Under the pieces are notes generated by a model. It ran no database searches and was not told where the DNA came from. It was given only the letters and a program-made list of their open reading frames with translations. From assembly GCA_963787835.1 (NCBI GenBank), contig CAWBEI010000002.1, forward strand, positions 704,001 to 768,000: a stretch of DNA of 64,000 nucleotides. The letters run 5' to 3'. Shown here in pieces: positions 6,060 to 20,643 of this stretch (position 1 is its first letter; every line of letters begins with the position of its first letter). The position numbers and the translations under genes were made by a program. This DNA is from Ignavibacteriota bacterium. GTDB lineage: Bacteria > Bacteroidota > Ignavibacteria > Palsa-1295.

Positions 6060-8216
6060 TTAATACTTCCCGACCAGCACCTCGATCAACCCGGTCCCCG
6101 GACCATTGAAATTATCAAGCGCCTTGCCAAGAACCTCACCGATCTGCACCTTAGTAAGATCGGCTTTCATAGCGTGGCCGGGCGTCGAGGATGTAACGAG
6201 AAGATCACCGATCTGAATCGGGCCATTTTCTGCGGACACTTTCGTGGGAATCACGCCAATCACGCCAAGCGGTACTTTTTCCGATAGATCGGCATCGATA
6301 TTTTCGGGTGTAAGCAGCACTCCGGGCTTGGTAGCATATACGCCAGCGACAAGTCTCGAATACGACTCACTGCACTTTTCTACCTTGCGGCTACCCGTGC
6401 GTGAGATCACCAGCACGTCACCCGGCTCATAGCTCGATCGAGCATTGGGTACATCGAAGGTTTCGGCGACATCGGCACCGCCTGTCTGCGTGCCTCCATC
6501 GAAGAATCCTTTTCCGGTATTATCGATGCGTGCTTTATTCCCGGCTAAAGTCTGGAAAATGGCGATGTTGTTGTTAAACGTGGTCGAAGTTCCGCTTCCC
6601 TCGTACACTGCAACGAGCGCATTGCCCGTCGTGCTAGCTATGGCAAGCACGCCGGTTCCCGTACTGGACCAACCCTCGACCCCATTTCCGGGAGTGGAAA
6701 CTCCGTAGACCCCATCCGCACTGGTGGAAGTTCCGGATGCATTGCCATAGACCCCGATCCCGGAAACGGTCAGCCCATACACACCCCATCCTCCGCCGGC
6801 GTGGGAACCATAAACGCCAATTCCTAAAGAGCCAGTCCCGTCGTTCGTGCCCAGCACGGCGGCGGAAAAACCACCTGGTGAAAGCGCGGTGATCTCGCCT
6901 TGAATGGCCGCAGCGTTGGAAGATGTCGAACTGCTTTGAGCAAGGATGGATGGTTTTGTCGTTGACGATAACGAGGATACCGCTTTGATGGCGCTCCCCG
7001 ACCCGGCATTATTCACCTCAACGGTATTGGCCGTTGCCGATGTGTTCGTGATCTCAAACAGACCGGCGCGACCTGTCATCGTTCCTGAACCAACCGTACC
7101 ATAAATTGCTACGCCTGACGAATACGTAGCGCCCTCTATACCATATCCAGTATTCGTCAAACCGGCTATTCCGGATGAAGTAGAAGATGCACCGCAAACG
7201 CCGGAGTTGGTGAGTACGCCAACCGAGGCACCATCGGATGAATACCCGACCACCCCAATGCCGGACGAACTGGATGTGGTGCCTTGTACACCGGCAATGG
7301 CCCCAGCAGAGGCAGAGCCATTCAATGCGCTGCCCGAACCGCTATTGGTTACAGAGAACAATGCAGAACCTGAGGATACCGTTTGCGAATAAGGCAAAGA
7401 AAAAACGGCGGGGCTCACCCAGGCAGCGCCGCCGGAACCATTCGCAGTCAGAACCTGACCGTTAGTTGCGGCACCGGAACCTACCACAGCATTCGTTACG
7501 GCGCCATTCGCTATCTTCGCCGTGGTCACGGCGGCATTTGCTAATTTTAGTGTTGAAACAGCACCATCTGCAAGACCAAGGGTAGCCGTTGGACCGTTCG
7601 GTGCCGTAACGTTGATCGTACCATCGGTATTCTGAATCCCTTGAATGCCCGTTCCCCCACCACCAGTTGAGCTGATCGTGATCGTCTGGCCGTTGTTGGT
7701 GATCGTTGTGCCACCCGCCCCGGTGAGTGTTATGGCGCCTGCAAGATTATTAACGGAATGCACCGCGCCACCGACCACGCGCGCGGAATCCGCAAAGCGG
7801 CTGCTCCACGCCGTGGGAACTGCCCCCAGCTTAGTCCGAGGCGCGAGTTCCGCACCGCCATCGATGCTGATGCCGAGATAATAATTTGGAGCGGGACGCA
7901 CCGTTCCCATATAATCTCCGGCATCGAAGAGTGGCAATGGATTCGCCTTGTTCGTACCGATCTGAATGTTGAATACCCCGGCACTGAAGGCTACCGCGCC
8001 TTGAGATTCCTGATACAGAGCCGTTCCGCCTGAGGAATCGGAATAGATCGCCAGCGCGACGGAGTGCGCCCCTTGCAACGGCGATCCATTACTTGATGCG
8101 GTTCCCTGATACGTGATGACTTGTTGAGCGAAGGATGAAGATGAGGCGAGCACCAGGAAAAGAAAGAAACCCAGAGCGCGCACCGAGGTTTGAGAAATGC
8201 CCTTCTGTGTTTTCAT
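6060..8216 (-). CDS. Secreted trimeric fibre/adhesin-like protein with C-terminal intramolecular-chaperone-like (S74/G2-type) domain
   Basis: Signal peptide; N-terminal ITYQG...GVFNIQIG...GAVPTA domain; AVTTAKIA and GVYG repeats; C-terminal GADVAETF...PGDVLVI...GPIQIGDLLVTSSTPGHAMKA...LGKAL. Confidence 0.7.
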   Translation of the reverse strand: MKTQKGISQTSVRALGFFLFLVLASSSSFAQQVITYQGTASSNGSPLQGAHSVALAIYSDSSGGTALYQESQGAVAFSAGVFNIQIGTNKANPLPLFDAGDYMGTVRPAPNYYLGISIDGGAELAPRTKLGAVPTAWSSRFADSARVVGGAVHSVNNLAGAITLTGAGGTTITNNGQTITISSTGGGGTGIQGIQNTDGTINVTAPNGPTATLGLADGAVSTLKLANAAVTTAKIANGAVTNAVVGSGAATNGQVLTANGSGGAAWVSPAVFSLPYSQTVSSGSALFSVTNSGSGSALNGSASAGAIAGVQGTTSSSSGIGVVGYSSDGASVGVLTNSGVCGASSTSSGIAGLTNTGYGIEGATYSSGVAIYGTVGSGTMTGRAGLFEITNTSATANTVEVNNAGSGSAIKAVSSLSSTTKPSILAQSSSTSSNAAAIQGEITALSPGGFSAAVLGTNDGTGSLGIGVYGSHAGGGWGVYGLTVSGIGVYGNASGTSTSADGVYGVSTPGNGVEGWSSTGTGVLAIASTTGNALVAVYEGSGTSTTFNNNIAIFQTLAGNKARIDNTGKGFFDGGTQTGGADVAETFDVPNARSSYEPGDVLVISRTGSRKVEKCSESYSRLVAGVYATKPGVLLTPENIDADLSEKVPLGVIGVIPTKVSAENGPIQIGDLLVTSSTPGHAMKADLTKVQIGEVLGKALDNFNGPGTGLIEVLVGKY

Positions 8217-8253
8217 AGCAAAAAATGGTTGGTTAAACTAAGACTATCGTTTG

Positions 8254-8261
8254 CAAATATA
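8254..8261 (-). promoter_or_regulatory. Bacteroidota-type -7 promoter box (TATATTTG)
   Basis: Matches TAnnTTTG about 38 nt upstream of the fibre gene start. Confidence 0.55.
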
Positions 8262-8400
8262 CAATCAAAATTTGCCAATGCAACAAAAAGAAAATCCTGT
8301 GGTCTTCTTCCGGAAGACTATTCCAAAGGACAATGCTTTTGGAACCTCAAAACTTACTCAACGGGCCGCGAAATCGGCACAAGGTGCAGAAGATCGGAGG

Positions 8401-9675
8401 CTAAGCCTGAAAGTATGCCATCCCGTTATTGATCACTCCCACGACCTTCCCGGTAAATTCCTTCCCGATAAATGGCGTATTCCGAGAATGCGAATGAATG
8501 TCCGTTTCCGAAAATCTCCATGTGCAATTGGGATCGAAAATGGTGAAATTCGCGCGCTCCCCTTCTCTGATTTGGACGTTTGGAAGTCCCAGCAATGTAC
8601 GCGGATTTGACGACGAGCACTCGATATAGTGTGAAAGTGTGAGATGCCCCGCATGAACGAGAGTAGTCAGCCCGATCGGAATTGCTGTTTCGAGACCGAT
8701 AATTCCCATAGCTGCGCTTACCATATCCGTCTCTTTTTCATGCGTGGCGTGCGGTGCGTGATCGGTGGCAATGCAATCGATCGTTCCATCTCGCAATCCT
8801 TCAATGATCGCATCCACATCCTCTTGCGTGCGGAGCGGCGGACACATTTTCGCCATAGTACCATGCGCTTCGACAGCTTCATCGGTTAATGTGAAATGAT
8901 GCGGAGTAACTTCGCACGAAACAGACAATCCGCGCGCCTTCGCTTCGCGGACGAGCCGGACCCCGCCTTTCGTGCTTACATGCGCTACGTGATAACGCAC
9001 CCCTCCGACATATTCCGCAAGCAAAATATCGCGCGCAATAATAATTTCTTCTGCTACGCTGGGCCAGCCGGGAAGACCGAGTCTTGTAGAAACACGACCT
9101 TCGTTCATTGCGGTGCCAGATGTCATCGAATGCTCTTCACAATGCTGCGTTACCAGCAGATCGAACATTTTTGCGTATTCGAACACACGTCGCATTACTT
9201 CGGCGCTTCTGACTGCCGCACCATCGTCGGAGATCATCTTTACACCCGCCTTTGCGAGCGCGGCCATCGGGGCAAGTTCTTCGCCTTTGCGATCCTTCGT
9301 CATCGTTCCGCAAATAGATAGATCGACAAGATGCCCTGCGGCTTTCTCTTTGATATAACTTACGACGAATGGATCGGATATCGGCGGCTCGGTATTCGGC
9401 ATGCAGCATACACCGGTAAAACCGCCGGCCATTGCTGCATTCAATCCAGATTCAATTGTCTCTTTATATTCTTGTCCGGGTTCCCGCAAATGGACGTGCA
9501 TATCGAAAAACCCAGGTGCAACGACGGCTCCGGCAAGGTCGCGCGCTTCAACATCCGATTCCAACCCACGCCCAATACGCGTGATGACGCCTTCGCGAAT
9601 TTCAAGATCGACGCCAGACTCATCGAGCTTTAGCGAGGGATCGATCACACGCGCATTTCGAAGAACTATATCCAT
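8401..9675 (-). CDS. pyrC: Dihydroorotase
   Basis: DMHVHLREPG, MPNTEP, HCEE, CEVTPHH and ATDHAPH motifs; downstream of pyrB. Confidence 0.95.
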   Translation of the reverse strand: MDIVLRNARVIDPSLKLDESGVDLEIREGVITRIGRGLESDVEARDLAGAVVAPGFFDMHVHLREPGQEYKETIESGLNAAMAGGFTGVCCMPNTEPPISDPFVVSYIKEKAAGHLVDLSICGTMTKDRKGEELAPMAALAKAGVKMISDDGAAVRSAEVMRRVFEYAKMFDLLVTQHCEEHSMTSGTAMNEGRVSTRLGLPGWPSVAEEIIIARDILLAEYVGGVRYHVAHVSTKGGVRLVREAKARGLSVSCEVTPHHFTLTDEAVEAHGTMAKMCPPLRTQEDVDAIIEGLRDGTIDCIATDHAPHATHEKETDMVSAAMGIIGLETAIPIGLTTLVHAGHLTLSHYIECSSSNPRTLLGLPNVQIREGERANFTIFDPNCTWRFSETDIHSHSRNTPFIGKEFTGKVVGVINNGMAYFQA

Positions 9676-9697
9676 TCTTAATTCTTAATTTTTACTT

Positions 9698-10612
9698 TTA
9701 ATCGAATACCCATTCCATCACAGCCATTCTTAACGCGACGCCGCGCTTCACTTGCCGAAGCACCAGCGAGCGTGGTCCATATACCATTTCGCTTTCGAGT
9801 TCGATCCCGTGGTTGATCGGGCCGGGATGTAGAATAAGAGCGGTGGATTTTGCCATGCGTTCCGGCGTCATTCCATACAGCTCGCGATATTCTTCAAGAC
9901 TTGGGAAAAATCCGCGAGCCTGGCGCTCCATTTGAATGCGGAGCATCATAATGACATCGGCCTTTTGCAAAACCGAATCAAGATCGTGCGTGGTCTCGAT
10001 GCCAAAGACTTCCGAAGTCTCGCGCGGCAGGAGGGTATCCGGAGCAACGAACGTAACAAGAGCGCCAAGCTTTTTCAACAGCCACGCATTCGAGCGCGCC
10101 ACACGAGAATGCAAAATATCACCAACGATGGCAATGCGTTTCCCATTCAATTTTCCAAGCGCGGCACGCATTTCTGCGGCATCGAGCAATGCTTGCGTGG
10201 GATGTTCGTGGACGCCATCGCCCGCATTAATGACATGCACATTTTCCGGAAGCCGCTCCGACAAAAACTTCGGAACACCTCCAACATTATGCCGAATCAC
10301 AAAGGCATCGACCTTCATCGCTTCCAGCACGAGGATCGTATCTAAAATGGATTCGCCTTTACTTAGGCTGCTGACAGCGGGGGTTAGCGTAATGACGTCC
10401 GCACCCAAACGGCGTTCGGCAAGTTCGAAAGATGTTCGAGTGCGCGTAGAAGCTTCGAAGAATAGATTCGCAATTGTTCGGCCTTCGAGCAGATGCGATC
10501 TTTGAAATGGGCCGGGCGCGTTGAGAAATTCTAAATAATAGTCGCTTCGGTCGAGAAGATGGAGGATGGTCTCGACGGGCAGGGCCTCGATGGTTAGGAG
10601 GTCTTTCCTCAA
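9698..10612 (-). CDS. pyrB: Aspartate carbamoyltransferase catalytic subunit
   Basis: FFEASTRTRTSF, INAGDG, HPTQALLD, GDILHSRV, LRIQMER and HPGP motifs. Confidence 0.95.
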   Translation of the reverse strand: MRKDLLTIEALPVETILHLLDRSDYYLEFLNAPGPFQRSHLLEGRTIANLFFEASTRTRTSFELAERRLGADVITLTPAVSSLSKGESILDTILVLEAMKVDAFVIRHNVGGVPKFLSERLPENVHVINAGDGVHEHPTQALLDAAEMRAALGKLNGKRIAIVGDILHSRVARSNAWLLKKLGALVTFVAPDTLLPRETSEVFGIETTHDLDSVLQKADVIMMLRIQMERQARGFFPSLEEYRELYGMTPERMAKSTALILHPGPINHGIELESEMVYGPRSLVLRQVKRGVALRMAVMEWVFD

Positions 10613-10650
10613 AGTGTGCCGTTAACACCGGGTAGCGGGCGTCGGTTTCT

Positions 10651-10750
10651 GACTGAGATTTATGGGATTTTTAGGAGATTTTGGGGATGGCAACAAGCAC
10701 CCCTGAGCCACATCCCATAAAATCCCTAAAAAATCGCACGAATCTCAGTC
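10651..10750. repeat. 100-bp imperfect inverted repeat (REP/MITE-like or terminator)
   Basis: GACTGAGATT...GATTTTTAGG arms pair with CCTAAAAAATC...AATCTCAGTC; abuts the stop codon of the LuxR module. Confidence 0.7.
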
Positions 10751-12346
10751 ACATTTTAGCCAGCACAATAGCCAATTCCTCCGAGCGTTTCAGCTTCATC
10801 TTTTGCCGGATGTGATTCCGGTGGTTCTCGACCGTCCGCTCCGATAGGCACAGCAGCCGCGCTATATCCTCCGATTTCAAATTCATGCGCACGAGCAAGC
10901 AAATGCGAAGTTCGGTTGGTGAAAGCTCGGGATATTTCTCCAACAGCTTTTTCGTAAACTCCGGGTGCGCGGCTTTGAACTGCGTGTCGAATTTCTCCCA
11001 ATCGACCGCCTTGCATGGCAGCGTCTTCAGCCGCTCGCGGAGTTCTTTGGCGGCGCCATCGGGCATGGGGAATTTGCGGATGAATTTCAGGAGACCGTTC
11101 TCAATTCTGAAAGTAATTCAGTTTGAGCGATGAGTTGGAGGGTGGAATTGGCAAGTTCTTTCTCCGTTTGCTGGGCTCGCAAGTTCGCAAGTTCCGTTTC
11201 TTTATGACTTCGCTCGACTTCCAATGCGGACTCAAGAGTTTTAAGCCTAAGCCGAGTTTCCTCGGACTCGTGCTTCTCGTGATTTTCTTTGAAAAGCTCA
11301 AAAAAATGAAGTGCTTTTTCAAATTCGTTGATCTCCTTATAGATCATTGCAAGAAGCTGGTTGGAAGTACACCCCAAAGTATGATTAGATATTGAAGTGC
11401 CTATCTGGGCAGCTTCCATGAAATGGGGAATTGCAGATTGATGATCGCCCAGCTCATTTTTGATACGGCCCAAAAGAAATTCAGCGGATCCCGTGAAGAG
11501 CGCATGTTTGGATTCTTGCGCAAGTGATAGCGCTGTTAAGGCATGATTTTCGGCTTGATCAAACTCTTTCAATTCACGATAGGTATCGGCTAAAATCCTA
11601 TGAGCGTGTGACTTCCCAACATTGTTCGTTGCAAGCATAAGTGCCTCTTGTGCAAAAGGAATGCTTTCGCGATAGAGACCATGCCCACCTTTTGCTTGAC
11701 TTACCTGCAAAAGCAAACGTGCTTTCCATGCTCTGTCGGAAGTATCGCCAGCCAATCTGAGTGCTTCCTCAGCATGATAAAGAAACCCATCGAGATCATG
11801 CGAAATTTTTGCAATCTCGGACAATCCTAAATGGCAATTTTGAATTTCCCTGATGAGATTATTTTTGTTCGCTACCGCAAGTGCTTCTTCAAGATACTCT
11901 AAAGATTTGGCCGTATTGCCGAGAAACATTGAATCATTTGCGATGCGAATCAGGGCATTAGTGATAAGTTTATGGTCATTTGTTTTTTTTGCGAGCCTCA
12001 AGGTCTCAACACGGCTTACAAACCCTTGCTCTGTTTTGCCAAGGAAGGTATTGGAGTTCTCTAAATCCGAGCGGCATCGAACTAAGTTAACAATATCGTC
12101 TAATTCAGAATACAATGCAATTGCTTGCGACAACGGAAGGAGTGACTTCTCGTAATCTGCTAATTCAATAAAGCCTTTACCGATGGCAGCTTGCGCTTTA
12201 GCAACCCATATCTTCGAATCAATTTCTTGAGCAAGAGCGAGTAATTCTTCCCCAAGCTTCACGCGATCTGCTCCGGTGTGGTCTTTTCCATCAAAATCGC
12301 GTTTCTCAATCTCTTGGAGCGCATTGAGTTTGCGTTTTTCGGTCAC
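10749..12346 (-). CDS. TPR + LuxR-type HTH regulator, split by a 1-nt frameshift near 11098
   Basis: TPR repeats in 11087-12346; LSPTELRICLLVRMNLKSEDIARLLCLSERTVENHR HTH in 10749-11066; adding one A gives ...SELRNGLLKFIRKFPMPD... Confidence 0.85.
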
Positions 12347-12429
12347 TGAATTATCGAGGAATTAAAGAAAAATGCACCAAGCCTACCAAGGCTTTACCCC
12401 GGCAGGCATGATACAAAAATACCACTATT

Positions 12430-13461
12430 TCACCGCACCCAATTAAGATCGCCTTCGACGCCGGTAGTCGAAGCTACTGTCGTGGTTGACGATGTAAACG
12501 TCACAACCTTCGTCAGAGCGAGCGTGGATAAATTTAGATATGCTATTCCGCTATTATTCGGTGACCACGTCGGGCCTGTACACTCGACGGAATTTGTCGT
12601 TGGCGTCGAACCGGTGGACGGGGCTACGTAATATAGCTCCCAAGGTGTAGAACTATTCGGGGTGTACATATACGCGAGTTCGTTCATGCCGCTATTCGAC
12701 CATTCGAGATTCCTGCACGAGCCCGAGATTGGGATCGAGTCCTCTGCTGCGCCAGTGGAAGAGTTGAAGATCAGGATGGTAAAATGTAGGGTTGTATCTT
12801 GGCGCAAGACTGCGATTTTCGAATCATCTGGACTCCATGTCGGATTTTCGTAAAGGCCAAGACAAACTGTCCCCATCACCTTCTTAAAAGATGCAAGTAC
12901 GGTAGGTGTTCCTCCCGATTGGGAAATCGTGCAGAGATCCGTAACACCGTATTGTGAACTTGATGTATGCAGCCGAGTAAATGCGATTTCACCCACAGAT
13001 GAAGTTGCACACCACGCCGGTCCGCTCTGAATTCTGTCCGAATCGCTGGATGTGAGCGAATAAATCGTCTGCGCATTGCTGGCGACGGGAACTCCCTTCG
13101 AATTCACGCTAATATCGACAGTGTTAATGGCCCAAGACGCGCTCTCCGCACTAAAATAGACAATCGAAGCTCCGTCGTAATTCCAGCTTGGATTTAAGAA
13201 GTTCTCAACCGTGTAGTTCGAGGGCGCTCTGACAACATTTGTCTGGTTTGCACCAGTTGAATCCATCACGCCGATAGTAATATACGTATTTCCCTTGATG
13301 GTTGTATCTCCAACATAAGCAATGACGGGGTCAGCCGGCGGTGGGCTGCTCTTGAGCGGCAGATTAATACCACTGTTAGCCGATTGTGGGTCTTGCTGGC
13401 AGGATGAAAGAAATGAAGCAGCCGCGAACACAGCGACGGCAAGAAGAAGCGATGTTTTCAT
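12430..13461 (-). CDS. TolB-like beta-propeller lipoprotein
   Basis: LSSC lipobox; PSWNYDG, PTWSPDD and PTWSPNN blades. Confidence 0.75.
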   Translation of the reverse strand: MKTSLLLAVAVFAAASFLSSCQQDPQSANSGINLPLKSSPPPADPVIAYVGDTTIKGNTYITIGVMDSTGANQTNVVRAPSNYTVENFLNPSWNYDGASIVYFSAESASWAINTVDISVNSKGVPVASNAQTIYSLTSSDSDRIQSGPAWCATSSVGEIAFTRLHTSSSQYGVTDLCTISQSGGTPTVLASFKKVMGTVCLGLYENPTWSPDDSKIAVLRQDTTLHFTILIFNSSTGAAEDSIPISGSCRNLEWSNSGMNELAYMYTPNSSTPWELYYVAPSTGSTPTTNSVECTGPTWSPNNSGIAYLNLSTLALTKVVTFTSSTTTVASTTGVEGDLNWVR

Positions 13462-13491
13462 GGGAAGTTTAATATTTAGAATGATGAAAAA

Positions 13492-13935
13492 TTAGTTACG
13501 AATGGAAAGTTTGTAGGAATAGCGTTCTTTGCCATCATCGAGCGTGAGCATATAAGTGCCGCTCGCCAGGCTGTGAAGTGTGAATTGAAGGTTATCGTTC
13601 TCGCGCATCATAAATGGCGTTGCATCGAGCACGAATGCTCCGCGTTCGTCATAGAGCGAAGCTGAAATATGATTCCCGATGTCGGCAGCGTCGATAGTGA
13701 AAATGCCCGTTGAAGGATTAGGAAAAAGTGATGTCGAATCCGTTTCCATTTGGATAACGACACTATTGTTGGTCAAAAAGAATGGAATAAATAACCCTCC
13801 CACGAATCCATATCCGGCAGCACCATTGCTGTTCGTAAGCAACGCCGAGCCGTTGCCATAGATCGTTGCGCTGGAATCCTGCGCTTGAGTCGATGAAGCC
13901 AGAAAGGAAATTGCAAATAAAAAAAGTATTTTCAT
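13492..13935 (-). CDS. Small T9SS CTD protein
   Basis: Signal peptide, about 45-aa short domain, then LFPNPSTG...LASGTYMLTL...YKLSIRN CTD. Confidence 0.85.
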   Translation of the reverse strand: MKILFLFAISFLASSTQAQDSSATIYGNGSALLTNSNGAAGYGFVGGLFIPFFLTNNSVVIQMETDSTSLFPNPSTGIFTIDAADIGNHISASLYDERGAFVLDATPFMMRENDNLQFTLHSLASGTYMLTLDDGKERYSYKLSIRN

Positions 13936-13939
13936 GGCG

Positions 13940-14944
13940 TTACCTCACTTTGATGAGCCAATACACGTAGGCGTTGTTCGGGCGAGTCTCAGTACAACTC
14001 AGTACAGCGCCGCTGGCTAATGGTGGCCCCGCATAGCTTGCTTGGTTTGGCACAGTGTTCACGTCTAAATAGAAAGATCCAGCACCACTATTTTCAGAGT
14101 TCAGTATTGGGCCGCTACCCCAATTTGGCAGCTGCTGAGAGTTAGAGCCGCTACCGTTGAAGTTATATCCCAAATATGCGACCTGATGCGTGTGATCTTG
14201 AATCATATCGGTCTGTACTGAACCTACTCCAGTACGGCTCGCAGTGGCATTTTCTGCGGTTGGAGCAGAACGACCATCTTGCGGATCGGCAAATTGATCA
14301 ACTCGTGCAGCATAAGGCCCCGAAGATTGGGTTCCTGTATTTACTCCGCGTAAAAATAATCCGCGCAAATCAGGAAGAGCGAGTGAATCACCAAAATTGT
14401 TCGAACCGTAAAGGGTTCCGACATTTTCGTTATATGATGGAAAGCTGTCCGCTGCGATTAGTCGTCCATCACACACGAACCAACCTAATTGAGCTTCATT
14501 TCCAAGCCCTCGAATGCTACCAGCGTAAGCAACTATCGTTCCCACGGGCGCTTGAGGAATATGAATCGCAGAATCGGCGATTCGTGCATTCATAGCATAC
14601 GGGGATGCAGCCAGTTGAACACGACCAAGTGTGTTGCCGTTGATAAGCACTTCCAACCAATACTGATTATTGAACGTCGTGTATGGGTTCTGCCAGTTTT
14701 GGCTGAAGTTCAGCATAACGGTATAGTACCCGTTCGTGACCTGAACATTCTGCGATTGCTGGTTCCAGGCCTGCGTACCACCCGATTGCTGATCCCAGAG
14801 CGTAAAACTCGCTGGAACGCTGCCATTGAAAGGTTGCCCGTTCTGAGTGAGATAACCCTGATACGCTATATTTTGCGGTATCTGCGCTCGAACGGCAGAG
14901 GCCGCTCCGATACTCAGAACCAAGAAAAGAAGTAGTTTTTTCAT
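13940..14944 (-). CDS. Signal-peptide-bearing protein with phage tail collar/fibre-tip domain
   Basis: Likely start MKKLLLF at 14944; N-terminal IAYQG...LAASPYA domain; PVGTIVAYAG, GWFVCDG, LPDLRGLFLRG, QDHTH and ETRPNN collar motifs. Confidence 0.85.
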   Translation of the reverse strand: MKKLLLFLVLSIGAASAVRAQIPQNIAYQGYLTQNGQPFNGSVPASFTLWDQQSGGTQAWNQQSQNVQVTNGYYTVMLNFSQNWQNPYTTFNNQYWLEVLINGNTLGRVQLAASPYAMNARIADSAIHIPQAPVGTIVAYAGSIRGLGNEAQLGWFVCDGRLIAADSFPSYNENVGTLYGSNNFGDSLALPDLRGLFLRGVNTGTQSSGPYAARVDQFADPQDGRSAPTAENATASRTGVGSVQTDMIQDHTHQVAYLGYNFNGSGSNSQQLPNWGSGPILNSENSGAGSFYLDVNTVPNQASYAGPPLASGAVLSCTETRPNNAYVYWLIKVR

Positions 14945-15111
14945 TGTATTTGCATCCGATTGAATAAAGTGAACTAACGGATACAAAATTACCGGGTACT
15001 ACACCTTTGTCGTTACTCATTTAATACTCATTCCTGAGATTTATTTCTTGAAATTCGTTCAGCTTAGAGTTTCGCGCACACAATGAAACCCGAACGTGTT
15101 ATATCCCAGAT

Positions 15112-18072
15112 ATGGCAGCGGCGAAGCGTAAAACAGTGGCAAATGAGTCGGTCGAGCACATGGCAGCGGCTCCTCCGGGCAATCCAAACGATTCTATCGT
15201 GGTTCGTGGCGCGCGCGTGCATAATTTGCGCGGCGTGGATGTCGATATTCCGCGCGAGAAGCTTGTGGTCATTACGGGCATCTCCGGTTCAGGGAAATCC
15301 TCGCTCGCGTTCGATACTATTTATGCGGAGGGCCAGCGGCGTTATGTGGAATCGCTCTCGCCGTATGCGCGTCAGTTTCTGGATATGATGGAGCGCCCGG
15401 ATGTCGATTATATCGAGGGACTTTCCCCTGCCATTTCCATCGAGCAAAAAACCATTGGCTCGACACCACGCTCGACCGTTGGCACCGTTACGGAGGTCTA
15501 TGATTTTATTCGCTTGCTTTTTGCCCGAACGGGTACGCAATTCTGTGTCGATTGTAATCTTCCTGTCGTGAAGCAAACGGTCGATCAGATCATCACGGCA
15601 CTCCTGAAATATCCGGACGGAACCAAAATTACGATCTTCGCTCCCATCGTTCGGGGCCGCAAAGGCCAGTTCAAAGAACTGTTCCGAGATGTCTTGCGCC
15701 AGGGCTTCGCGCGCGCCCGCGTCGACGATCTCCCGAAAGAGATCAGTGAAGATCTGGAACTTGACCGCTATAAAGCGCATACCATCGAGATCCTGATCGA
15801 TCGCATCGTGCTGAACGAAGGCATCCGCGACCGGCTGACGGCCTCGGTCGAAACGGCCCTCAAAATGAGCAAGGGAACGATCAGCGCCGAGATCGAGCAA
15901 AGCAAACAAAAGGAGAATGTGCTCTTCAGCGAAAAATATAGCTGCCCAAATTGTGGAAGGTCCTACGAAGAGCCGCAGCCCAATACCTTTTCGTTCAATT
16001 CACCGACCAACGCATGCCCGGAGTGCCACGGCTTAGGCGTTCGCAGGGATTTCGTGCTGGAACTTATTACTCCCGACAGATCGGTCTCTATCGAAGATGG
16101 CGGGATCGTTCCGTTTGGAAAACAAGGCAAGAACTGGCTTTGGGCGCAATTGGAAGCGCTGTTCGACCATTTCAGCATCCCGCTTTCCACGCCCATAACA
16201 TCGCTTCCCGAACCATTTCTCGAACTGCTCATGAATGGTTCCGGAAAACAAAAATTTCACGTTGTGTGGACGTCCGGTTCGGGCCGAACCACCAAATACC
16301 AAACAAAATGGGCTGGCGTGTTCGAGACACTTCGCTATTGGTTCAACGAATCCGGTTCCGAAGCGCAACGCGGCTGGGCCGAGCAATTCATGGCTGCCCA
16401 TACGTGCCCGGCATGCAATGGCGGAAGATTGAAACCCGAAAATCTCGCCATTCGCGTCCATGGCAAGAACGTCCGGGACATTGTGATGCTCTCGCTTATC
16501 GAAACGATCGAGTTCTTTCGCACGCTCTCGTTCGAAGGCATTAAGCAAACGATCGCTGAGCCGATCCTGAGAGAAATCATTCCACGTATCGATTTCCTGC
16601 TCCAAGTCGGACTTGGGTATCTTTCGCTCGATCGGTCGGCGCAATCGCTATCCGGCGGCGAATCGCAACGCATTCGCCTTGCTACGCAAATTGGCACGCA
16701 GCTTGTCGGTGTGCTCTATATCTTGGATGAGCCGAGCATCGGCCTTCATCAACGCGATAACCGTCGGCTCATTCATTCATTAGAACAATTGCGCGATCTC
16801 GGCAACACCGTTATCGTGGTCGAACATGACCGGGAGATGATGGAATCTGCAGATCTCCTGATCGATATTGGCCCTCGTGCCGGAGAGCATGGCGGGAACC
16901 TTGTGGCATACGGGCCACCGGCGCTATTTCAGTCGGCAACAAATGGGACTGCTCCGGCAAATGGATATTTTATAGGAGAGAATTCTCCTACCGCAAAATA
17001 TTTGGCGGGAATTTCTTCTTTGGAAATTCCCAAAGAGCGGGTAATTTCTAAAAAAAATAAAGCCATCGTACTCGAAGGAGCAACGGGAAATAATTTGCGT
17101 GACGTCACGCTCCGAATTCCGCTCGGAACATTCACGTGCATTACGGGAGTCTCCGGTTCTGGAAAATCAACGCTCATTAACGAGACGCTTGCTCCGATCT
17201 TGCAACGGCATTTTTACGATTCGCACGTCGTCCCGCTCCCGTTTAAGAAAATCGAAGGTTTAGATGAGATCGACAAGGTGATCGAGATCGATCAAACCCC
17301 CATTGGCCGGACGCCACGCTCGAATCCTGCGACTTATACCGGGCTGTTCACGTATATCCGCGATTTTTTTGCCTCACTGCCGGAATCGAATATTCGCGGA
17401 TATAAGATCGGGCGATTTTCTTTTAATGTCAAGAGTGGCCGATGTGAGGCGTGCGAGGGCGATGGCGTGAAAAAGATCGAGATGAATTTCCTGCCGGACG
17501 TTTATGTAACCTGCGACGTCTGTCGAGGCAAACGATACAATCGTGAAACACTCGAGGTGCATTACAAGGGCAAATCCATTGCGGATGTATTAGCGATGAG
17601 CGTAACGGAAGCCGAAGAATTCTTTTCGGAGATCCCTCGCATCAAGCGGAAGCTGCATGCACTGTCTTCCGTTGGAATGGGCTACATCCGGCTGGGTCAG
17701 CAAGCGCCAACGCTTTCCGGTGGGGAGGCGCAGCGCGTGAAGCTCGCGACGGAGCTTTCAAAAGTCGCTACCGGAAAAACGCTCTACATTTTGGATGAAC
17801 CGACGACCGGCCTTCATTTCGAGGATATCAAACATCTCATGGATGTGCTGCTCCGGTTGCGCGAGCGGGGAAACACCGTGGTCGTGATCGAGCATAACCT
17901 AGATGTGATCAAAATGGCGGACTGGGTCGTCGATCTTGGCCCCGATGGAGGCTCAGCCGGAGGGCACATCGTCGATGAAGGCACACCGGAAGCGCTTGCG
18001 GCCCGTTTTGGCGCGACCGGAAGCCATACCGCATTCTTTCTCAGGAAAGAATTAGGGATGCCGATCGATTAA
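15112..18072 (+). CDS. uvrA: Excinuclease ABC subunit A
   Basis: Two ABC domains ([18 protein letters not shown]), LSGGE motifs, zinc fingers. Confidence 0.97.
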
Positions 18073-18253
18073 AAGAAGATTTCGTTGGAATTCGTATGAA
18101 GGAATTGTGTTGTGGCTGCACCAGTTAATTCGTCGCGATAGCGAATTATTCATCCACGAATTGCATTCTTCGACATCGCATGAACACGGAATCGCCTTCC
18201 ATATCCCCGATTTTTCCAATCCCATTCTTCACGCTTAACTTTTAATTTCTTCA

Positions 18254-19363
18254 TTGTTTCAGTACATCGTCCGCCGGATCTTGCTTTATCTGCCCACGCT
18301 GTTCATTATTACAGTGATCTGGTTTGGCATCACACGGATGGCGCCCGGCGACCCGGCGGAACTCAAAGCTGGCGTAGGAAGCGAAGGCTCACAGCGTGGC
18401 AATCAACAGCTTAATGAGCAGATCATCAATCAGATCAGGGCACAGTGGCATCTCGATAAACCAATCTGGTACTGGACCATCTTTACCGATGACAAAGATT
18501 CCAGCGGACAGCTAAAGCCACTTTCGGAACGAACCACGTTCCGGTGGAACGGCACCAACAACCAGTACCATCTTTGGATGTCGGAGCAGCTTCGTGGCGA
18601 TTTCGGTGTTTCGTTTCAGGACCAGCGGCCTGTGATGGATAAGATCATCGAGCGCGTACCGATCACGGCATTTCTTTCGCTGACCTCGATCTTCCTCTCC
18701 TTTATCATTGCGATTCCCATCGGCATCTACTCTGCGGCAAAGTCCCGTGAGAACAGCACGATCGACCGAGCGGTATCGACCACGCTCTTTATCTTATACT
18801 CCCTGCCGAATTTTTGGATCGCCACCATGCTCATCATCTTTTTTGGCGGTGGAGATTTTCTGGCCTGGTTTCCGAACAACGGCTTGCATGGCAATGATTA
18901 TCCCTATCCTACCTGGATCGCAAACACCGGCGACCTGTTTTGGCATCTCGTTCTTCCGATGGTCTGCTATACGTATGGGTCCCTCACGTATCTTTCCAGA
19001 CAGATGCGCGGCTCCATGCTCGAAGTCATTCGACAGGATTACATCCGCACCGCCCGCGCCAAGGGCCTTTCGGAAAAGATCGTAGTCTATAAGCATGCGT
19101 TACGCAACTCCCTGATCCCCATCATTACCATTATGGGTGGAATCCTTCCAGCGATCGTCAGTGGATCTATTATTTTGGAAACGATCTTTACCATTCCTGG
19201 CCTCGGGTTGCTGGAATTCAATGCTCTTACATCGCGGGATTATCCCGTGATCATCGAGACCGGGCTTATTTCGTCGGTGCTTACGCTCGTTGGTATTCTG
19301 CTCAGCGATATTTTGTACTCCATCGTCGATCCTCGGATCGCATTTACGAAAAAGTCAGCATAA
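18254..19363 (+). CDS. Oligo/dipeptide ABC transporter permease (OppB/DppB type)
   Basis: APGDP, DYIRTARAKGL, HALRNSLIP and DPRI motifs; TTG start. Confidence 0.9.
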   Translation: MFQYIVRRILLYLPTLFIITVIWFGITRMAPGDPAELKAGVGSEGSQRGNQQLNEQIINQIRAQWHLDKPIWYWTIFTDDKDSSGQLKPLSERTTFRWNGTNNQYHLWMSEQLRGDFGVSFQDQRPVMDKIIERVPITAFLSLTSIFLSFIIAIPIGIYSAAKSRENSTIDRAVSTTLFILYSLPNFWIATMLIIFFGGGDFLAWFPNNGLHGNDYPYPTWIANTGDLFWHLVLPMVCYTYGSLTYLSRQMRGSMLEVIRQDYIRTARAKGLSEKIVVYKHALRNSLIPIITIMGGILPAIVSGSIILETIFTIPGLGLLEFNALTSRDYPVIIETGLISSVLTLVGILLSDILYSIVDPRIAFTKKSA

Positions 19364-19422
19364 GGATGACTGATACGAACGAGAACACACATCACCGATA
19401 AAAGCCAGGCATAGAGTATCTG

Positions 19423-20643
19423 ATGGACGAGAATAACGAATTTCGAAATATGGGATCGCTGAAAGCCGAAAAACCTTCGGCCGAAACGGTTGGCCCCCTC
19501 GATCGCATACCCGTTCGGGACGAATATCTGATCGGCCAGCAAAATTCCCAAACGGCCCCATTGCCGGAGGAGATCCCATCTAATTTCGAATCGGAGACAG
19601 AAGCAAAGCGGATCGAAGCTCGGCGCATGGTGACGCAAAGCTTTTGGTCGCTCGTTCGGCACCAGTATAAGAAAAATCGTATCGCAGTTTATGCACTGTA
19701 CGTGGTATATTTCCTTTTTGGCATAGCGATCTTAGCCGATGTACTTGCCAATGATAAGCCGTTATATGCAGTCTATAAGGGAACAACCTATTTCCCGGTC
19801 TTTAAGCAGTATCTTGCCGATCTTCATATCAGCCAATGGTCGCCCGATCTTGTGATGGCAGACTGGAACGACCTGGAAAAATCTGGCGATGTAAAAAATG
19901 CAATTTGGCCACCAATTAAGTATTCTGAATCCGACGAGGACCTGGCGAACACGCTGTCCCCGCCTTCCGGAACGCACTTGCTCGGCACAGACGGAATTGG
20001 CCGCGATGTGCTCGCCGGGATGATCCATGGCTCGCGTATAGCCCTCTCGATAGGGTTTGTGTCCATGTCATTCGCTATCATTATTGGAGTGTTTTTGGGT
20101 GCATTAGCTGGATTTTATGGCGGTTGGATAGACAACATCATTTCCAGGCTTATCGAGGTCGTGCTTACGCTGCCGACATTCTTTCTCATTATCGCCATCG
20201 TCGCGATGGTACAGACAGGCTCAGTCTGGCTGATCATGGTACTGATCGGTATCACAAGCTGGCCCAGCGTTGCGCGATTCACACGCGGGGAATTTCTTCG
20301 AATTCGTAACATGGAGTTCGTTTCGGCGGCATCGGCACTGGGGTTTAAGAATTCCAGGATCATTCTTCGGCATATGCTTCCGAATTCGCTCGCGCCAGTA
20401 TTGATCTCCGCTGCCTTTGGCATCGCAGGTGCGATCCTAACAGAGGCCAGCCTTTCTTTCTTGGGATTTGGCGTTCCTCCGACCGTCGTGACCTGGGGTA
20501 GTGTATTGAACGATGCCCGAAACGACATTCACGCCTGGTGGCTTGCGGTCTTTCCGGGATTTGCAATTTTTCTTGCCGTCGTTGCGTATAATCTTGTCGG
20601 CGATGGCCTGCGGGATGCGCTTGACCCACGCCTTAGAGATTAA
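19423..20643 (+). CDS. Oligo/dipeptide ABC transporter permease (OppC/DppC type)
   Basis: HLLGTDGIGRDV, RHMLPN, EASLSFLG and GDGLRDALDPR motifs. Confidence 0.9.
   Translation: MDENNEFRNMGSLKAEKPSAETVGPLDRIPVRDEYLIGQQNSQTAPLPEEIPSNFESETEAKRIEARRMVTQSFWSLVRHQYKKNRIAVYALYVVYFLFGIAILADVLANDKPLYAVYKGTTYFPVFKQYLADLHISQWSPDLVMADWNDLEKSGDVKNAIWPPIKYSESDEDLANTLSPPSGTHLLGTDGIGRDVLAGMIHGSRIALSIGFVSMSFAIIIGVFLGALAGFYGGWIDNIISRLIEVVLTLPTFFLIIAIVAMVQTGSVWLIMVLIGITSWPSVARFTRGEFLRIRNMEFVSAASALGFKNSRIILRHMLPNSLAPVLISAAFGIAGAILTEASLSFLGFGVPPTVVTWGSVLNDARNDIHAWWLAVFPGFAIFLAVVAYNLVGDGLRDALDPRLRD

Follow-up and report, generated by a model that had tools for sequence, protein, structure and literature searches.

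How could a protein that ends in a phage-type receptor-binding tip, and that lacks a sorting domain of its own, reach the surface of a bacterial cell, and why is it encoded directly before a very small protein composed of little more than such a domain? This question is raised by two adjacent genes in a window of 64,000 nucleotides (the whole stretch of DNA analysed here: positions 704,001 to 768,000 of contig CAWBEI010000002.1, assembly GCA_963787835.1, from an Ignavibacteriota bacterium). Gene A (13940..14944, minus strand, ATG at 14944) encodes a short fibre of 334 aa akin to the mosaic adhesive trimers (MAT), with a signal peptide, a YQG base domain and a phage collar/tip, and without the C-terminal sorting domain (CTD) of type IX secretion systems (T9SS). 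Gene B (13492..13935, minus strand) encodes a 147-aa candidate adaptor, in which a signal peptide and a short stub precede a T9SS type A CTD; its ATG lies 4 nt past the stop codon of A. A first-pass annotation had described this anatomy and proposed that the small protein carries or anchors the CTD-less fibre; the anatomy was borne out, including the lack of any CTD match for A in the Pfam and NCBIfam scans. The paired locus is a real, conserved feature, and small glycine-rich stub-CTD genes adjoin YQG genes across the class. Since many related bacteria have the same pairing, B likely grips the base of the fibre and mounts the fibre on the surface. The fibre belongs to a known type, while the stub adaptor is undescribed in the literature searched, in which no account of the fibre/stub-CTD pairing or of the stub family was found. 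In the following, G denotes genomes (G000 is the query genome), L loci (L051 is the query's own locus) and P proteins.

Anatomy of the two genes

All features of A and B lie on the minus strand. The motifs by which A had been recognized are all present: YQG at residue 28, PYA at 115, PVGTIVAYAG at 133, LPDLRGLFLRG at 190, HxH at 251 and ETRP at 319. The protein starts with a Sec-type signal peptide (residues 1–20; 14885..14944), read by eye, as were the signal peptides of B and of the homologs examined. It is followed by the YQG...PYA base domain (residues 21–118; 14591..14884), a predicted Ig-like β-sandwich with kinship to the N-terminal domain of the Bdellovibrio MAT fibres, by the phage tail collar domain PF07484 (residues 135–197; 14354..14542; 46.8 bits against a cut-off of 24, the sole collar match in the genome) and by a gp12-like receptor-binding tip (13943..14353). 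The tip contains the conserved pair His251-x-His253 (14186-14194) and a variable stretch at about residues 255–315. In the AlphaFold monomer of A (mean predicted local distance difference test score, pLDDT, 73) a confident N-terminal β-sandwich is joined by a short helix to a gp12-like C-terminal half, with low pLDDT in the variable stretch.

Comparison with known structures identified the T4 gp12 entries 1ocy (VIA: Z 9.2, root mean square deviation 3.7, 111 residues aligned, 31% identity) and 1pdi (Foldseek: E 1.2e-6) as relatives of the tip, the part that shares the fold spanning residues 123–334. Together with the collar match above cut-off, this gp12-like fold places A among the phage tail collar fibres. 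In T4 gp12, HxH pairs from three chains (His445/His447) bind zinc on the axis of the trimer (PMC3004832). His251 and His253 of A are at least 90% conserved among 51 homologs, and A, judging from the fold, would be a homotrimer in which they are the equivalent of this metal site. No match to the S74 chaperone was found in A (Pfam).

The phage-like tip is not accompanied by other phage genes. The locus is bordered by pyrB, pyrC and uvrA, and none of the three phage marker families searched (Baseplate_J, tail sheath, Terminase_6N) has a match in the genome, which is 97.9% complete, in agreement with the earlier remark that phage genes are lacking nearby. The base domain was not matched by any of 50,697 phage records. 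Since neither phage relatives of the base nor baseplate, sheath or terminase genes were found, A is a MAT-like protein of the cell that has borrowed its tip from phages, and not a prophage gene. The fibre homologs examined mostly begin with signal-peptide-like N-termini; A itself, with its signal peptide and without structural marker genes found in the genome, does not qualify as a tail fibre of a prophage or of an extracellular contractile injection system (eCIS).

The CTD of B (residues 70–145; 13501..13728) is recognized by both PF18962 (37.6 bits) and TIGR04183 (33.9 bits), each above cut-off, and is predicted with a pLDDT of ~90. The stub (residues 19–52; 13780..13881) is glycine-rich and, in the alignment, a shortened form of the GG..GQ..GFW stub described below. 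In the single-chain model the CTD is confident and mature residues 1–48 are not, so that B displays no confidently folded cargo. The host genome encodes SprA, PorV and a C25 peptidase, these being the only T9SS components searched for; the peptidase gene lies directly upstream of porV, an order that we take to be that of porU-porV. There are 3 C25 peptidase genes in the genome. With a signal peptide, a C-terminal type A CTD and a host that encodes a T9SS, B qualifies as a type A cargo protein.

The T9SS CTD is carried by 251 of 2809 crude genes (~9%), and 15 of these 2809 (0.5%) are small CTD genes. By an arithmetic estimate, the chance that one of the 11 fibre genes of the genome adjoins a small CTD gene is about 1 in 10; the adjacency of A and B in this genome is therefore weak evidence taken alone, and the case rests on its conservation in other genomes. 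A complex prediction with three copies of the A base domain and mature residues 1–45 of B, carried out with alignments, yielded a score of 0.04 against a mark of 0.32; the controls were not folded, and the result is counted neither way. The scan for promoters and terminators revealed no excess over shuffled sequences (7 vs 5.4 and 3 vs 4.9, respectively).

The base domain and the MAT fibres

The YQG base domain is found in 11 genes of the genome, with differing C-termini and open frames of ~310–4170 aa, none of which (0/11) carries a CTD. Matches to A, chiefly via this domain, occur in 94 of 201 genomes of the class; the nearest named homologs come from Candidatus Kapaibacterium/Kapabacteria (P0005; P0102 in the case of B). 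A metagenome locus search with A returned 35 pattern matches, of which 0 were confirmed. The MAT N-domain profile NF053851 is matched by 57 of the 64 members of the base-domain alignment headed by A at E<=0.1 (best E 1.7e-10). A itself has no match to it at E<=0.1, and none of the base-domain copies of this genome passes the cut-off of 60 bits (best paralog 36.9). Judging from these family-level profile matches, the YQG base domain is a relative of the Bdellovibrio MAT N-terminal domain, and hence not new; the homology of the base and the mosaic of a shared base with diverse tips suggest that A works like a MAT fibre, yet it fails the curated membership cut-off. Searches against PDB sequences gave chance-level matches alone, and the fold search with the base part of the full-length model gave generic β-sandwiches alone (Z <=7.1). 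In the ESM Atlas the base domain falls on clusters without a Pfam family, and B on small CTD clusters. A distinct motif is common to the base domains of the A lineage (15/51).

Several further fibre genes of the genome were observed. One, also with a YQG base, lies in the window (6060-8216, minus strand, 718 aa), is matched by nothing in Pfam, NCBIfam or PHROG and adjoins no small CTD gene. Two other YQG fibre genes (C2:1656333-1658237 and C4:102136-103923) are each directly followed by a CTD protein of ~590–630 aa in which no stub was detected. The secreted fibre-like proteins at C2:271749-274994 and 282266-283612 belong to another family, with neither a YQG base nor a stub match.

The stub family and its pairing with fibres

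A single stub query matched 58 of the 201 genomes of the class; the stub family, with the consensus GG..GQ..GFW, comprises 4,884 clusters at E<=0.001. When the best 30 stub loci of the class were inspected, a YQG gene on the same strand and at most 300 nt away was found in 24; the 6 others include one contig end and the orphan copy of the query genome. In the phylum sample the stub is adjacent to a YQG gene in 14 of 30 loci, and 11 of the other 16 adjoin a fibre-like C-terminus (by eye). The two counts are not independent: they have loci in common and come from related genomes, and L051 is the query's own locus. In 10 of 19 hand-picked fibre regions a stub lies upstream, and long fibres with many kinds of tip are found beside the same stub. 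Conserved adjacency of YQG genes and short CTD genes, for which a gene-neighbourhood survey had been suggested, is thus supported by the 24 of 30 class loci and by the locus of the A ortholog (L081, below).

Among the best 150 stub proteins, 106 possess a CTD and 0 are fused to a YQG domain. Eight members without a CTD were scanned: 3 match dockerin (2 above cut-off) and 1 matches IPTL-CTERM. This variety of tags, combined with the lack of a YQG fusion, is as expected of a swappable tether. Other stub proteins of ~95–105 aa (P0145, P0203, P0204, P0233 and similar ones) consist of the stub only and end in a short 'LP.V.R' tail, possibly a sorting signal. In five Bacteroidota loci (L114, L122, L123, L133, L171) a fibre gene, with a collar or another tip, precedes the gene of a large protein with an N-terminus that is stub-like by eye, significantly so for L171 alone; stubs may also head large surface proteins.

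The membership of B in this family is less direct. In the alignment its stub corresponds to the first hairpin and the terminal motif of the family stub, with three glycine columns invariant in 20 rows. The CTD of B is 75–80% identical to the CTDs of P0102 and P0103, whose full stubs match the family profile, and groups with them in the tree (93/91, unstarred). The best A ortholog among genome contigs (39% identity over residues 2–334) is encoded at L081 (identical to G359:C21 and counted once), where a full-stub CTD gene of 175 aa comes after the fibre gene and has matches to the stub profile of the family as well as to the profile of B. The CTD encoded by this gene is the next-best match of the B CTD (40%, with a bit score above those of all 247 other CTDs of the genome), a position that the tree does not settle. 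For three A-like/B-like pairs both partners lie on contigs of equal size (6333, 2529 and 6371), an indirect sign of linkage. The short form of the stub is kept in five sequence clusters, with the signal-peptide-like N-terminus intact. In P0098 and P0099 the stub is closer to B than the CTD is (97% vs 89% and 88% vs 78% identity, respectively), while in the other two short-stub homologs the stub is less conserved than the CTD (56% and 50%). We therefore assign B to the stub family by its apparent descent from full-stub members and its position beside a YQG gene, not by a profile match; the link is indirect but consistent. Features particular to the A-B locus are the gp12-type tip, the adaptor located downstream and the shortened stub.

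Proposed mechanism and alternatives

What has been observed is how the two genes are built, that their pairing is conserved, that T9SS genes are present and how the tip is folded; on this we base the following mechanism, all steps of which are conjectural. A and B would both reach the periplasm via Sec. A would trimerise by its collar and tip, probably round a metal that, as in T4 gp12, the pair His251/His253 would bind. The stub of B, which has no confident fold alone, would then fold onto the base domain of A, and the CTD would engage PorV and SprA, so that the A-B complex is exported. The T9SS cargo of Porphyromonas undergoes CTD cleavage and surface attachment; the CTD of B would likewise be cleaved and the stub attached to the surface, where the processed stub would hold the trimer. 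The variable tip would finally bind a ligand, making A a short surface adhesin. We favour this account of B as an adaptor tentatively, as somewhat short of an even chance, and it is less certain for the shortened stub of B than for the stub family. The original proposal of carriage or anchoring thus stands as far as the conserved adjacency and the SprA, PorV and C25 genes go; it has to be narrowed in that the T9SS link is lineage-specific and that the lipoprotein and regulator genes, considered below, fall outside the system.

A broader version of this reading is also possible, and we would lean against it only mildly. According to it, MAT-type bases would have their missing surface partner in the stub family, a general plug by which untagged trimeric fibres are joined to whichever sorting tag the lineage uses; the T9SS tag would in addition drag the folded trimer through SprA, as a piggy-back form of type IX secretion, and A and B would be the minimal form, a 34-residue plug with a 334-aa fibre.

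Several observations weigh against the adaptor mechanism, and those on distribution come first. With the fibre as the starting point, the stub was found upstream in just 7 of 29 cases (for long fibres 1.5 kb upstream was visible and the downstream side was not). Across all bacteria an adjacent stub was detected in 4 of 39 collar-bearing YQG loci, with a stub profile trained mostly on this class that may miss distant stubs. Many of these loci come from Verrucomicrobia, Endomicrobium, Planctomycetota or Myxococcota, which are not known to have a T9SS, and the T9SS link is therefore lineage-specific. In the present genome a small CTD gene is lacking next to 10 of the 11 YQG genes, and the lone canonical stub-CTD gene (C2:1206821-1207366; L031) stands without a fibre neighbour. 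Other observations concern B itself: its stub is ~20 residues shorter than the family stub, scores 0.4 bits against the family profile, is absent at E<1 after iteration and reaches an hhalign probability of 8.5%. In G362 a B-type gene without an in-frame signal peptide precedes the lipoprotein gene, with no fibre upstream. Finally, no account of piggy-back export of an untagged partner by the T9SS was found in the literature searched.

The occurrence of collar-bearing YQG fibres in lineages not known to have a T9SS, along with the 4 of 39 adjacent stubs, makes a tether without export the main rival. B would bind and anchor the base of A, while A leaves the cell by a T9SS-independent route common with the fibres of Bdellovibrio and Verrucomicrobia, the two proteins meeting outside. 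Another exit route must exist in those phyla because the fibres occur there, and the fusion of stubs to dockerin and IPTL-CTERM tags suggests that anchoring is the common role. Against this, the commonest tag of the stubs in this lineage is an export signal (106/150), A and B, separated by 4 nt, are probably translated together, and no alternative transporter gene was found within 8000–20000 of the window. We regard such a tether as unlikely, with an appreciable chance of being right. In lineages not known to have a T9SS, clusters of YQG-collar genes (L085, L088, L116, L146 and others; up to 7 genes, in L090) were observed before large secreted proteins that share an N-terminus and that presumably are Rhs/SpvB-like, as judged by eye.

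The short, sub-significant stub of B, the ten fibres without a neighbouring adaptor and the copy in G362, which looks 5'-truncated, would also be explained if B were a degenerate, non-binding remnant, in which case A would use the orphan stub-CTD protein of C2:1206821-1207366, possibly serving all 11 fibres in trans, or no adaptor at all. A remnant would hardly be expected to keep the short stub and an intact signal-peptide-like N-terminus in five clusters, or a stub more conserved than the CTD as in P0098 and P0099; moreover, the base motif of the A lineage and the pairing of the L081 fibre with a B-type adaptor suggest a dedicated pair. We consider a remnant improbable. The stub loci L069, L074 and L079 of the same bacterial family are orphan as well, and L031 may be an adaptor common to all YQG fibres.

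Or perhaps B could be an escort that aids folding or export and departs once secretion is done, with A set free as a soluble trimer, a lectin-like protein or a decoy, and not as a surface adhesin? The gp12-type fibres need the chaperone gp57A to trimerise (PMC3004832) and A has no S74 match; besides, at 334 aa A has little length for a fibre that projects (~1,000 aa is typical of MAT; PMC10769870). The same stub is, however, found with long fibres of many tip types and with anchor-type tags, and we regard an escort of this kind as quite improbable.

Neighbouring genes and the variable island

The order on the minus strand is A, B, a lipoprotein gene (12430-13461), a tetratricopeptide repeat (TPR) frame (11087-12346) and a LuxR helix-turn-helix frame (10749-11066), flanked by pyrB and uvrA. 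The first-pass annotation had listed a propeller lipoprotein and a TPR-LuxR regulator after B. Both are there; the PD40/TolB propeller matches are weak and below cut-off, and the regulator gene is broken into two frames by a frameshift near 11090, whereas in G359 it is a single frame. The frameshift (10749-12346) could be an assembly error or the mark of a pseudogene. Neither gene is part of the fibre system. A role of the lipoprotein in it was rejected, as a fibre or stub gene was found near (within ~1.5 kb) in 0 of 22 loci of lipoprotein homologs; regulation of A and B by the TPR-LuxR protein found no support, as G359 has the lipoprotein and the regulator at the pyrB-uvrA site and the A-B pair on another contig. 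The lipoprotein travels with TPR(-LuxR) genes, which follow it in 7 of 22 loci by BLAST and in more by eye; the lipoprotein and TPR-LuxR genes are a separate cassette. The lipoprotein family (L234–L255) has up to 6 copies per genome, is nearly confined to this bacterial family and is often located directly upstream of TPR(-LuxR) genes, possibly as a sensor-regulator cassette; in one homolog (L241) a CTD takes the place of the lipoprotein N-terminus.

In 15 of 23 relatives the distance from pyrB to uvrA is no more than 1.5 kb, and the stretch between the two genes can therefore be considered a variable island; its guanine plus cytosine content is 0.44–0.49 compared with ~0.51. Such a setting, the phage-like tip and the G362 locus, in which B precedes the lipoprotein without A, would suit an origin of A as a relic of a prophage or contractile injection system, with the position of B due to chance or tied to the lipoprotein. 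This reading is largely refuted by the signal peptide and the cellular base of A, by the phage searches reported above and by the lipoprotein-homolog loci devoid of fibre and stub genes, as well as by the order of A followed by an adaptor, which is kept elsewhere without the lipoprotein; we deem it very improbable.

Implications

The MAT paper left the surface partner of the fibre base open, and the gene neighbourhood now gives a candidate that is testable with two small proteins. If piggy-back export is true, the T9SS secretes CTD-less proteins, and the secreted proteome of these bacteria is larger than predictions from CTDs indicate; the re-use of receptor-binding tips of phages as exchangeable adhesins on the cell surface would be explained as well. 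If A and B are indeed the minimal form, they define the smallest binding element, and a module for surface display could be made of the 34-residue plug and the base of ~100 residues.

Comparison with known systems

T4 gp12 (1ocy, 1pdi; PMC3004832) resembles A in the fold of residues 123–334 and in the conserved HxH motif, whereas A lacks the baseplate-binding part and the long shaft and has instead a cellular base domain and a signal peptide. B shares with the type A cargo of the T9SS (PF18962, TIGR04183; PMC10994853) the signal peptide and the type A CTD, and differs from it in the missing folded passenger, in place of which it has the stub of ~34 residues alone. The closest parallel is provided by the MAT fibres of Bdellovibrio bacteriovorus (PMC10769870; NF053851), the N-domain of which is predicted to have a binding partner on the surface that still awaits identification (Caulton et al. 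2024, PMC10769870, Discussion); the passages of that paper covered here name no surface partner, and those of a 2026 review (PMC13689555) no further one. A role of A in prey recognition could only be conjectured, by analogy to Bdellovibrio. Like the MAT fibres, A combines a signal peptide, a conserved base and a variable phage-like tip, and belongs to a multi-gene family (11 members here); it differs from them in its short length, its gp12-type collar tip, the lack of an S74 match and the T9SS-tagged neighbour.

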